A stretch of DNA of 64,000 nt, from NCBI RefSeq assembly GCF_046105845.1, contig NZ_CP151004.1, one strand, 5' to 3'. The position numbers and the translations under genes were made by a program. The stretch comes from Escherichia coli. Its GTDB lineage: Bacteria > Pseudomonadota > Gammaproteobacteria > Enterobacterales > Enterobacteriaceae. Positions 55,370 to 63,766 of the stretch are shown here, in pieces. The notes beneath the pieces were generated by a model that worked only from the letters and a program-made list of their open reading frames with translations, was not told where the DNA came from and made no database searches. The first letter of the stretch is position 1, and every line of letters begins with the position of its first letter.

Positions 55370-56017
55370 GTGAAGCTATACATTTACGATCACTGCCCTT
55401 ACTGCCTCAAAGCCCGCATGATTTTCGGCCTGAAAAATATCCCCGTCGAATTACATGTTCTGCTCAACGACGACGCAGAAACACCCACCCGGATGGTCGG
55501 TCAAAAACAGGTTCCCATTCTGCAAAAAGATGACAGCCGCTATATGCCAGAAAGCATGGACATCGTTCACTATGTCGATAAACTCGACGGCAAACCGTTA
55601 CTGACCGGCAAACGTTCCCCTGCCATTGAAGAGTGGCTGCGCAAGGTCAATGGCTACGCCAACAAACTGCTGTTGCCGCGTTTTGCCAAATCAGCATTTG
55701 ATGAGTTTTCTACTCCTGCCGCGCGCAAATATTTCGTCGACAAGAAAGAGGCCAGCGCGGGTAATTTTGCCGACCTGCTGGCCCACTCTGACGGTCTGAT
55801 TAAGAATATCAGCGATGATTTACGTGCGCTGGACAAACTGATCGTCAAACCGAACGCCGTGAATGGCGAACTTTCGGAAGATGATATTCAGCTATTTCCG
55901 CTCCTGCGTAATCTGACGCTGGTAGCCGGAATCAACTGGCCAAGCCGCGTTGCTGATTACCGCGATAATATGGCGAAACAGACACAAATCAATTTGTTAT
56001 CATCAATGGCGATTTAA
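55370..56017 (+). CDS. grxB: Glutaredoxin 2
   Basis: 215 aa, MKLYIYDHCPYCLKARMIFGL (CPYC active site). Confidence 0.96.
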   Translation: MKLYIYDHCPYCLKARMIFGLKNIPVELHVLLNDDAETPTRMVGQKQVPILQKDDSRYMPESMDIVHYVDKLDGKPLLTGKRSPAIEEWLRKVNGYANKLLLPRFAKSAFDEFSTPAARKYFVDKKEASAGNFADLLAHSDGLIKNISDDLRALDKLIVKPNAVNGELSEDDIQLFPLLRNLTLVAGINWPSRVADYRDNMAKQTQINLLSSMAI

Positions 56018-56150
56018 TCCTGACCCGCCGCGGCAGCCTGTATTCGCGGGTTGCCGCCGTTTTCAGTTTTTTCTGCTGGCGCGTTTATCGCTGGTGACAC
56101 ATGCTGCGTTGTGTCAGGATATTGACGCAGATTTCATGTCGAGGACTACC

Positions 56151-56711
56151 ATGAACAAGTTTTTATTTGCCGCTGCATTGATCGTCAGTGGCCTGCTCGT
56201 TGGCTGTAATCAACTCACCCAATACACCATCACCGAACAAGAAATTAACCAGTCGCTTGCGAAACATAATAATTTCTCAAAAGATATCGGTTTACCCGGC
56301 GTGGCTGACGCCCATATTGTTCTGACAAACCTGACCAGCCAAATTGGTCGCGAAGAGCCGAATAAGGTTACCCTAACCGGAGACGCCAATCTGGACATGA
56401 ACTCCCTGTTCGGTAGCCAGAAAGCGACCATGAAACTGAAGCTGAAAGCGCTGCCCGTGTTTGATAAAGAAAAAGGCGCGATCTTCCTGAAAGAGATGGA
56501 AGTGGTCGATGCGACGGTACAACCGGAAAAAATGCAAACGGTGATGCAAACGTTGCTTCCCTATTTGAACCAGGCATTACGCAATTACTTTAACCAGCAA
56601 CCTGCTTACGTCCTGCGCGAAGATGGCAGCCAGGGCGAAGCAATGGCGAAGAAACTGGCGAAAGGCATTGAAGTGAAGCCAGGCGAAATTGTCATTCCGT
56701 TTACTGATTAA
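56151..56711 (+). CDS. yceB: DUF1439 lipoprotein YceB
   Basis: ORF track over-extended (253 aa); recognised start MNKFLFAAALIVSGLLVGC (lipobox) at ATG 56151, 186 aa. Confidence 0.92.
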   Translation: MNKFLFAAALIVSGLLVGCNQLTQYTITEQEINQSLAKHNNFSKDIGLPGVADAHIVLTNLTSQIGREEPNKVTLTGDANLDMNSLFGSQKATMKLKLKALPVFDKEKGAIFLKEMEVVDATVQPEKMQTVMQTLLPYLNQALRNYFNQQPAYVLREDGSQGEAMAKKLAKGIEVKPGEIVIPFTD

Positions 56712-56715
56712 TCAC

Positions 56716-56742
56716 GAGGGCGCATTCGCGCCCTTTATTTTT
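56716..56742 (+). terminator. Intrinsic terminator after yceB
   Basis: Hairpin gagggcgcattcgcgccctt followed by T-run tattttt directly after yceB stop. Confidence 0.75.
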
Positions 56743-56750
56743 CGTGCAAA

Positions 56751-56765
56751 GGAAAACGTTTCCGC
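56751..56765 (+). promoter_or_regulatory. PurR operator (PUR box) in pyrC promoter
   Basis: Palindrome GGAAAACGTTTCCGC with the AAACGTTT core typical of PurR boxes, ~55 nt upstream of pyrC ATG. Confidence 0.65.
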
Positions 56766-56816
56766 TTATCCTTTGTGTCCGGCAAAAACATCCCTTCAGC
56801 CGGAGCATAGAGATTA

Positions 56817-57863
56817 ATGACTGCACCATCCCAGGTATTAAAGATCCGCCGCCCAGACGACTGGCACCTTCACCTCCGCGATGGCGACATGTTAAAAACT
56901 GTCGTGCCGTATACCAGCGAAATTTATGGACGGGCTATCGTAATGCCCAATCTGGCTCCGCCCGTGACCAGCGTTGGGGCCGCCGTGGCGTATCGCCAGC
57001 GTATTCTTGACGCCGTACCTGCCGGGCACGATTTCACCCCGCTGATGACCTGTTATTTGACAGATTCACTAGACCCTAATGAGCTGGAGCGCGGATTTAA
57101 CGAAGGCGTGTTCACCGCTGCAAAACTTTACCCGGCAAACGCAACTACTAACTCCAGTCACGGCGTGACGTCAGTTGACGCAATCATGCCGGTACTTGAG
57201 CGCATGGAAAAAATCGGTATGCCGTTACTGGTGCATGGTGAAGTGACACATGCAGATATCGACATTTTTGATCGTGAAGCGCGCTTTATAGAAAGCGTGA
57301 TGGAACCGCTGCGCCAGCGCCTGACCGCGCTGAAAGTCGTTTTTGAGCACATCACCACCAAAGACGCTGCCGACTATGTCCGTGACGGAAATGAACGGCT
57401 GGCTGCCACCATCACTCCGCAGCATCTGATGTTTAACCGCAACCATATGCTGGTTGGTGGCGTGCGTCCACACCTGTATTGTCTACCCATCCTCAAACGC
57501 AATATTCACCAACAGGCACTGCGTGAACTGGTCGCCAGCGGTTTTAATCGCGTATTCCTCGGTACGGATTCTGCGCCGCATGCACGTCATCGCAAAGAGA
57601 GCAGCTGCGGCTGCGCGGGCTGCTTCAACGCCCCAACCGCGCTGGGCAGTTACGCTACCGTCTTTGAAGAGATGAATGCTCTGCAGCACTTTGAAGCATT
57701 CTGTTCTGTAAACGGCCCGCAGTTCTATGGCTTGCCGGTCAACGACACATTCATCGAACTGGTCCGCGAAGAACAACAGGTTGCTGCAAGCATCGCACTG
57801 ACTGATGACACACTGGTGCCATTCCTCGCCGGGGAAACGGTACGCTGGTCCGTTAAACAATAA
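56817..57863 (+). CDS. pyrC: Dihydroorotase
   Basis: 348 aa, [27 protein letters not shown] (metal-binding HLH motif). Confidence 0.97.
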
Positions 57864-62621: not shown

Positions 62622-62845
62622 GGTGTACGGTTCCTGCGAGATGGGAAAGTAAAAATCCGCGGCATGATATAGCAATTATCGATAATTAACATCCACACAT
62701 TTTACGCTACATTTGCGCATTAAAAATTATTTGTTATTTACAAGCGCGGCAATTTCGCCCAGTCTTCAGTCACAAATTTTGGTTGCGGACGAAAAAATGC
62801 GACAATACATACAATTGCCCGTATAGGTTGAAAAACAGGATTGAT

Positions 62846-63766
62846 ATGACGAATCTACCCAAGTTCTCCACCGCACTACTTCATCCGCGTTATTGGTTAA
62901 CCTGGTTGGGTATTGGCGTACTTTGGTTAGTCGTGCAATTGCCCTACCCGGTTATCTACCGCCTCGGTTGTGGATTAGGAAAACTTGCGTTACGTTTTAT
63001 GAAACGACGCGCAAAAATTGTGCATCGCAACCTGGAACTGTGCTTCCCGGAAATGAGCGAACAAGAACGCCGTAAAATGGTGGTGAAGAATTTCGAATCC
63101 GTTGGCATGGGACTGATGGAAACTGGCATGGCGTGGTTCTGGCCGGACCGCAGAATCGCCCGATGGACGGAAGTGATCGGCATGGAACACATTCGTGACG
63201 TGCAGGCGCAAAAACGCGGCATCCTGTTAGTTGGCATCCATTTTCTGACCCTGGAGCTGGGTGCGCGGCAGTTTGGTATACAGGAGCCGGGCATTGGCGT
63301 TTACCGCCCGAACGATAATCCACTGATTGACTGGCTACAAACCTGGGGCCGTTTGCGCTCAAATAAATCGATGCTCGACCGCAAAGATTTAAAAGGCATG
63401 ATTAAAGCCCTGAAAAAAGGCGAAGTGGTCTGGTACGCACCGGATCATGATTACGGCCCGCGCTCAAGCGTTTTCGTCCCGTTGTTTGCCGTTGAGCAGG
63501 CTGCGACCACAACCGGAACCTGGATGCTGGCACGGATGTCCGGCGCATGTCTGGTGCCCTTCGTTCCACGCCGTAAGCCAGATGGCAAAGGGTATCAGTT
63601 GATTATGCTGCCGCCAGAGTGTTCTCCGCCGCTGGATGATGCCGAAACCACCGCCGCGTGGATGAACAAAGTGGTCGAAAAATGCATCATGATGGCACCA
63701 GAGCAGTATATGTGGTTACACCGTCGCTTTAAAACACGTCCGGAAGGCGTTCCTTCACGCTATTAA
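62846..63766 (+). CDS. lpxL: Lipid A biosynthesis lauroyltransferase LpxL (HtrB)
   Basis: Recognised N-terminus [28 protein letters not shown] (306 aa) at 62846; ORF track over-extended 21 codons. Confidence 0.95.

Follow-up and report, generated by a model that had tools for sequence, protein, structure and literature searches.

The short segment in front of pyrC, the gene for dihydroorotase, raises the question of which control elements it holds, and whether these act on transcription, on translation, or on both. The segment was analysed as part of a 64,000-nucleotide (64-kb) stretch of Escherichia coli DNA, referred to here as the window. We are highly confident that it comprises the E. 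coli pyrC promoter and leader with two independent controls, one linked to purines and acting on transcription, the other linked to pyrimidines and acting on translation. The element is already known: it is covered by a curated Rfam family, it is a documented PurR target and its mechanism is textbook knowledge.

The yceB-pyrC intergenic region and the pyrC promoter

The list of open reading frames gives the gene order around the feature as mdtH-grxB-yceB-pyrC, a segment of the E. coli chromosome. The yceB reading frame (55950-56711, plus strand), annotated as yceB in E. coli genomes and in K-12, ends with the stop codon TAA at 56709-56711. The coding sequence of pyrC (348 amino acids; 56817-57863, plus strand) starts with the ATG at 56817 and is annotated as pyrC in 5425 E. 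coli genomes and in K-12. The two genes are separated by 105 bp (56712-56816). Positions 56700-56830 are 100% identical to the yceB-pyrC intergenic region of E. coli K-12 MG1655, so that published work on K-12 applies directly. A 301-bp query was matched in 5425 of 5426 complete E. coli genomes, where the matched features carry the names yceB and pyrC. Among 5424 genomes, 5359 show at least 99% identity over the 87-bp control region, which is more uniform than the 301-bp span including flanking coding sequence, for which this level is reached in 3828 genomes. Five of the 5428 matches to the region in this genome collection fall on records labelled plasmid.

Directly behind the yceB stop codon, a terminator scan identifies a strong intrinsic terminator at 56716-56745 (plus strand), consisting of a stem-loop (56716-56735) followed by a run of T residues. 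The stem has eight pairs, six of which are G-C, and a 4-nt loop, and is followed by the tail TATTTTTCGT; the predicted folding energy is -16.1 kcal/mol (z = -4.23). A G+C-rich stem-loop and a T-run just past the yceB stop are the hallmarks of a Rho-independent terminator, and the original prediction correctly placed the two regulatory layers of pyrC directly after it.

The -10 hexamer of the pyrC promoter is TATCCT (56767-56772, plus strand), which reads TATnnT in relatives; a mapped transcription start lies 9 nt downstream of it, and the Rfam model of the leader begins here. The inferred -35 element GTGCAA (56744-56749, plus strand), at 17 bp from the -10 hexamer, matches the consensus at three of six positions. 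It was placed from the spacing and from the conserved motif (G/A)TGCA(A/T), which occurs at equal distance in 21 aligned Enterobacterales promoters. A sigma-70 consensus scan of positions 56500-57000 called no promoter. The pyrC promoter is weak by consensus, and its placement rests on the start-site data and on conservation.

The -10 hexamer is separated by the bases TTGTG from a cluster of potential start sites, T6-C7-C8-G9-G10 (56778-56782, plus strand), in which C7, C8 and G9 correspond to positions 56779, 56780 and 56781. The C7/G9 numbering is the one that we take to be used in the abstract of Liu & Turnbough 1994. The genome-wide 5' RACE study of Kim et al. 2012 lists the pyrC start at position 1121866 on the minus strand of NC_000913.2, with 321 reads, a 36-nt 5' untranslated region and an upstream sequence ending in ...GTGTCCG (PMC3415461). 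By our own coordinate conversion this position corresponds to G56781 of the window, i.e. to G9, and the published K-12 start thus falls inside the 5' arm of the leader hairpin described below. The cells had been grown in M9 glucose without pyrimidines, and the data set retained just the strongest 5' end per 10-bp window, so that a C7 start could not appear in it (PMC3415461). In the searched files of a Cappable-seq data set, which may be incomplete, these coordinates gave no match. The layout of a start-site switch is present at this promoter, with both C and G starts located within the 5' arm, 7-9 nt past the -10 hexamer. A literature search for an involvement of Fur at pyrC found none.

The PurR operator in the promoter spacer

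The original prediction included a PurR-type palindrome upstream of pyrC, given as GGAAAACGTTTCCGC at 56751-56765. A PurR operator (PUR box) is indeed present at this place, and its matrix score is the highest of the window, but it is 16 bp long, AGGAAAACGTTTCCGC, begins one base earlier (56750-56765) and is only partly palindromic. Its 8-bp core AAACGTTT forms a perfect palindrome, and the arms GGAAA and TTTCC are centred symmetrically on base 56757, offset by half a base pair from the CpG axis of PurR. The position upstream of pyrC was also correctly predicted, except that the box belongs to the promoter and not to the transcribed leader: it lies in the spacer that separates the inferred -35 element from the -10 hexamer, and takes up 16 of its 17 bases. 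PurR sits between the -35 and -10 elements at 44% of the PurR-regulated promoters (PMC3159470).

For scoring, a matrix was built from the 28 ChIP-chip motifs of Cho et al. 2011 (PMC3159470), among which pyrC is not included, and was applied to all 16-mers on both strands of the 64-kb window. With 17.0 bits, the pyrC box is the top-ranking site; 0.2 sites of at least this quality are expected per shuffled window, and the score of the box lies within the range of genuine PurR sites (11.9-25.1 bits). With a length of 16 bp, a central CpG, the matrix match and the location between -35 and -10, the site has the features of a PUR box. A search of the 64-kb window with the idealised palindrome ACGCAAACGTTTGCGT, allowing up to three mismatches, returned no match, because the pyrC box deviates from this sequence at four positions.

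The operators of the pur regulon (motif ACGNAAACGTTTGCNT) share with the pyrC box the length of 16 bp, the central CpG, the AAACGTTT core and the placement relative to the -35 and -10 elements. In contrast to these operators, the pyrC box carries C at position 13, where G is found in 27 of the 28 ChIP sites, is associated with weaker reported repression and was not seen by ChIP-chip. The C at position 13 fits a weak operator. Direct repression of pyrC by PurR has been reported from in vitro binding and in vivo mutation (PMC3159470, PMC6245113), and Cho et al. count pyrC among 15 sites already characterised in these two ways (PMC3159470). In their own ChIP-chip experiments, performed with and without adenine, PurR was undetected at pyrC and at glnB (PMC3159470). 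Charlier et al. describe repression of pyrC as much lower than that of the purine biosynthetic genes (PMC6245113). The pyrD promoter also carries a PurR box, CGGAAAACGTTTGCGT, which, unlike that of pyrC, was detected by ChIP-chip (PMC3159470).

The runner-up matches to the PurR matrix in the window are ACGAAAACGCTTGAGC (63462-63477, minus strand; 15.0 bits), located inside a 327-amino-acid open reading frame (62783-63766), and ACGTAATCGTTCGCGC (35720-35735, plus strand; 13.9 bits). Neither is in the listed ChIP-chip regions, and both are probably chance matches. In addition, an inverted repeat with 90% complementarity, CAAAGGAAAA/TTATCCTTTG (56747-56756 and 56766-56775), flanks the PurR core and shares bases with the -10 hexamer. 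It was considered as a second operator and rejected, as it is not conserved in other genera; it is probably incidental.

The leader hairpin and start-site choice

The inverted repeat of the type ccgg...ccgg that had been predicted at about 56779-56803, overlapping the GGAG, was recovered at these positions. In its longest form it pairs TCCGGC (56778-56783) with GCCGGA (56799-56804), with 15 nt between the arms. Repeat search, folding and Rfam agree on a 5' arm CCGGC (56779-56783), and folding and Rfam on a 15-nt loop AAAAACAUCCCUUCA (56784-56798); the 3' arm GCCGG (56799-56803) overlaps the first two bases of the Shine-Dalgarno sequence GGAG (56802-56805), which was read from the sequence and lies 11 nt before the ATG (all on the plus strand).

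The folding of transcripts from alternative 5' ends, which had been proposed as a check, was carried out. The predicted hairpin depends strongly on the 5' end: its energy is -9.7 kcal/mol for a start at T6, -8.1 at C7, -5.0 at C8 and -3.0 at G9, and no hairpin is predicted for transcripts starting at G10. Transcripts starting at G9 thus retain a predicted residual stem of 3 bp. The mean unpaired probability of the GGAG, calculated for transcripts that run on for 20 nt beyond the ATG, failed to distinguish the C7 start from the G9 start because of weak alternative pairings with the coding sequence; it was replaced by hairpin-only energies and by the expected number of pairs that the 5' end forms with the Shine-Dalgarno region. 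Compared to shuffled sequences the z value is -1.73 when the 41-nt C7 leader is folded alone and -0.39 when coding sequence is appended, and comparable perfect GC-rich 5-bp repeats over the Shine-Dalgarno region occur at 3 of 56 long open reading frames in the window (about 5%). By thermodynamics alone the predicted structure would be only marginally more than chance.

The hairpin becomes convincing through the Rfam match, its conservation in relatives and the published genetics. The Rfam family RF02372 (PyrC_leader) matches positions 56767-56816 (plus strand) with 68.7 bits, compared to a gathering score of 50, over model positions 1-50 of 50, and the match ends directly before the pyrC ATG. 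The only structure in this model is the 5-bp stem CCGGC/GCCGG, of which the 3' arm overlaps the Shine-Dalgarno sequence. The pyrC leader of E. coli and Salmonella described by RF02372 is the same element, with equal stem, Shine-Dalgarno overlap and start positions, and nothing in the window differs from it. The claim of a start-site-dependent hairpin over the Shine-Dalgarno sequence, as known for pyrC, is in this way borne out by the K-12 identity, the folding series, the mapped G9 start and the Rfam match. The window contains two further Rfam matches at gathering level, the RNase E 5' UTR element (RF00040; 34725-35061, plus strand; 260 bits) and the SraB small RNA (RF00077; 32696-32864, minus strand; 210 bits).

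Together with published work on pyrC, these elements suggest the following mode of control; the sensitivity to nucleotide pools, the actual block of translation and the occupancy by PurR are features that we adopt from the literature or infer. PurR, with hypoxanthine or guanine, would occupy the operator at 56750-56765, and since this site takes up the -35/-10 spacer of the promoter, the bound repressor would modestly lower transcription initiation. Repression of pyrC by PurR is roughly two-fold. RNA polymerase would be able to start at C7, C8 (56779, 56780) or G9 (56781). At a high ratio of CTP to GTP, transcription would start at C7, yielding an RNA that begins with CCGGC and can pair with GCCGG at 56799-56803; the resulting hairpin would cover the first half of the GGAG and block ribosome binding. 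With low CTP and high GTP, the G9 start would be used, leaving three pairs and an unstable hairpin, so that pyrC could be translated. According to PMC6524683, the two extra 5' C residues allow a structure that sequesters the ribosome-binding site, a low CTP/GTP ratio leads to the G-started, translatable transcript, and reduced translation also alters the decay of the longer pyrC mRNA. The mechanism is backed by mutational work as cited in PMC6524683, which refers to Wilson et al. 1992, Liu & Turnbough 1994 and Sorensen et al. 1993 on pyrC; experiments with compensatory stem mutants are reported in the cited J Bacteriol papers. The promoter-leader of pyrD in E. coli and Salmonella likewise shows CTP/GTP-sensitive start choice with a 5' hairpin (PMC6524683).

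A longer helix is predicted for RNA that enters the region from upstream. In such RNA, the normally untranscribed bases between the -10 hexamer and the start site, CUUUGUG (56771-56777), are complementary, with G-U pairs, to CAUAGAG (56806-56812), located between the Shine-Dalgarno sequence and the ATG. The predicted helix has 13 pairs and an energy of -17.8 kcal/mol, with z about -3.7. Such a helix might keep yceB read-through RNA untranslated, and might thereby insulate pyrC from upstream transcription. Position 6 is able to pair with the last Shine-Dalgarno base in 21 of 21 aligned sequences, and the further extension pairs hold in just 9-15 of the 21, none of them outside the Enterobacteriaceae; a GUGC/GCAC form of the extended helix is present in many Enterobacteriaceae and is not order-wide. 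The distance from GGAG to ATG is 11 nt in E. coli and E. albertii (CATAGAGATTA, 56806-56816) and 6-10 nt in relatives, with 7 nt in Citrobacter (CATATTG; loci L015, L053 and L118 were compared). The four extra bases in E. coli provide part of the extended complementarity.

Conservation in Enterobacterales and rival explanations

To place the two controls in a wider context, pyrC loci were retrieved by scanning a collection of species-level genomes with a degenerate pattern of one coding motif, which is blind to the leader. The scan yielded 120 loci, 26 of the Enterobacterales type and 94 others, and 22 leaders were parsed, including that of the window. The shared layout consists of (G/A)TGCA(A/T), a 17-bp spacer, TATnnT, a run of C residues, G9 and a complement of the GCCGGAG type at the Shine-Dalgarno sequence. 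All 22 leaders have G at position 9, and the register of C7, C8 and G9 relative to the -10 hexamer is constant. The invariant -10, C7, C8, G9 and GGAG columns of the alignment are partly a product of the selection filter, which in the case of the GGAG (21 of 21 aligned leaders) demanded its presence near the start codon; the register at position 9 is a real result, because the filter permitted other spacings. A strict form of the signature is found at 17 of the 26 Enterobacterales-type loci and at none of the 94 others. In about 17 of the 22 leaders, pairing between the 5' end and the Shine-Dalgarno region is predicted for C6 or C7 starts and has collapsed no later than at G10, and little such pairing is predicted in Yersinia aldovae, Acerihabitans and Rahnella. 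Serratia silvae (L108) and a Pantoea symbiont (L020) have no recognisable -10/CCGG start region upstream of pyrC; in the symbiont, this upstream region is very AT-rich and also without GGAG.

The stem itself shows minimal covariation. In two Yersinia (CCGC/GCGG), one pair has switched from G-C to C-G, probably as a single event, and the same pair is broken in three relatives. None of the other four pairs has a compensatory change: two are invariant, one deviates solely through non-pairing, and the only deviation in the remaining one is a G-U pair derived from the alignment, in Photorhabdus. In the two Photorhabdus loci (L018, L043), the GCCGG arm is located just after the Shine-Dalgarno sequence (GGAGCCGG), and the predicted hairpin covers the spacer to the ATG; the flanking genes of these loci also differ, with tRNA arrays and a cspA thermoregulator nearby. 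The loop varies from 15 nt to about 80 nt among relatives. RF02372 reaches its gathering score at the window and at three Citrobacter loci only, all of which have short loops, and stays below threshold at the 20 remaining loci of the Enterobacterales type that were scanned; the majority of these retain the -10/C7C8G9/GCCGGAG layout with longer loops. The signature of -10 hexamer, C7-C8-G9 and Shine-Dalgarno complement extends far beyond the reach of this model, to Yersinia, Erwinia, Pantoea, Edwardsiella and Photorhabdus. Five long-loop leaders (L040, L052, L098, L100 and L112), from Enterobacter, Pseudescherichia, an Enterobacteriaceae metagenome-assembled genome (MAG) and Mangrovibacter, share the loop motif (A/G/T)TGACTGA(T/C)TT. 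This motif resembles the pyrC start ATGACTG and is missing from the short loops of E. coli and Citrobacter, which, judged from the sequences, look like deletion derivatives.

The PurR box has a narrower distribution. All Enterobacteriaceae-type loci scored carry it with 14.6-17.2 bits, at a constant offset except in Enterobacter sp. Ag1 (L040); the genera with the same offset are Citrobacter, Enterobacter, Superficieibacter, Pseudescherichia and Mangrovibacter, and E. albertii has it as well. Pantoea stewartii (L091) has a PurR-like box, GTGCAAACGGTTGCCT, of 16.75 bits, located 6 bp further upstream, on the -35 element. In other Erwiniaceae the box is weak or absent (8.8 bits in Ca. Pantoea persica and none in Erwinia psidii; L071, L116), and it is absent in Yersiniaceae, Pectobacteriaceae, Photorhabdus and Edwardsiella, where the -35 and -10 elements are conserved. 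The PurR box appears to be a family-level layer, added later and specific to the Enterobacteriaceae, and the start-site switch may be ancestral to the Enterobacterales. Taken jointly, an ancestral order-wide switch with a later PurR addition, plus the insulation of pyrC from read-through, make up a tentative proposal that we consider doubtful as a whole.

Several other explanations for the elements were weighed. The CCGGC/GCCGG repeat might be incidental, or serve as a mere mRNA-stabilising 5' stem, and involve no translational control that depends on the start site. This would agree with the insignificant stability compared to shuffled sequences, the similar repeats at 3 of the 56 long open reading frames, the near absence of covariation, and the little pairing predicted in Acerihabitans, Rahnella and Yersinia aldovae. 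Chance would not readily account, however, for a match to RF02372 above threshold, for a mapped start inside the 5' arm, for a C7, C8 and G9 register that is fixed in all 22 leaders despite a permissive filter, or for a signature that is missing from the 94 non-Enterobacterales loci; as cited in PMC6524683, the published mechanism moreover has mutational support. An incidental or purely stabilising stem is therefore very improbable. Start-site switching also has to be distinguished from an attenuator of the pyrBI or pyrE type and from UTP-sensitive reiterative transcription. Attenuation and reiterative transcription are used by other E. coli pyrimidine genes, which lends such models some general plausibility. 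Reiterative transcription is also mentioned beside pyrC in PMC6524683. The stretch from the start sites to the pyrC ATG, however, contains no terminator-like structure, and the sole plus-strand terminator is that of yceB, upstream of the promoter; the 36-38 nt of the leader hold no leader peptide reading frame, and the start site reads TCCGG, with no T-run. Attenuation and reiterative transcription are excluded on these grounds, and we give this alternative practically no credence.

For the PurR box, the alternative is that the site does not work in vivo, being decayed or very weak and conserved for reasons of promoter spacing. Its absence from the ChIP-chip data with and without adenine (PMC3159470), the C in place of the nearly invariant G at position 13 and a reported repression far below that of the purine biosynthetic genes (PMC6245113) could all be read in this way. 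Against a decayed site stand the top matrix score of the window, within the 11.9-25.1 bits of genuine sites, and the standing of pyrC among the 15 sites with in vitro binding and in vivo mutation (PMC3159470). Furthermore, the offset of the box is constant across several Enterobacteriaceae genera, whereas the spacers of other families are unrelated. Since these spacers differ where the box is absent although the -35 and -10 elements are kept, there is no constraint on the spacer from the promoter itself, and this speaks for a box retained for the sake of PurR. A non-working box is unlikely, if somewhat less so than an incidental stem, and the reading of the region as a promoter with a working, weak PurR operator and a start-site-controlled leader is preferred.

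The pyrC region itself yields no new biology. The comparative by-products, i.e., the order-wide layout, the limited reach of RF02372 and the restriction of the PurR layer to one family, offer a small practical benefit for annotation. The pyrC gene represents the classic case of nucleotide-sensitive start-site choice, in which a difference of two bases at the 5' end decides whether the message is translated.
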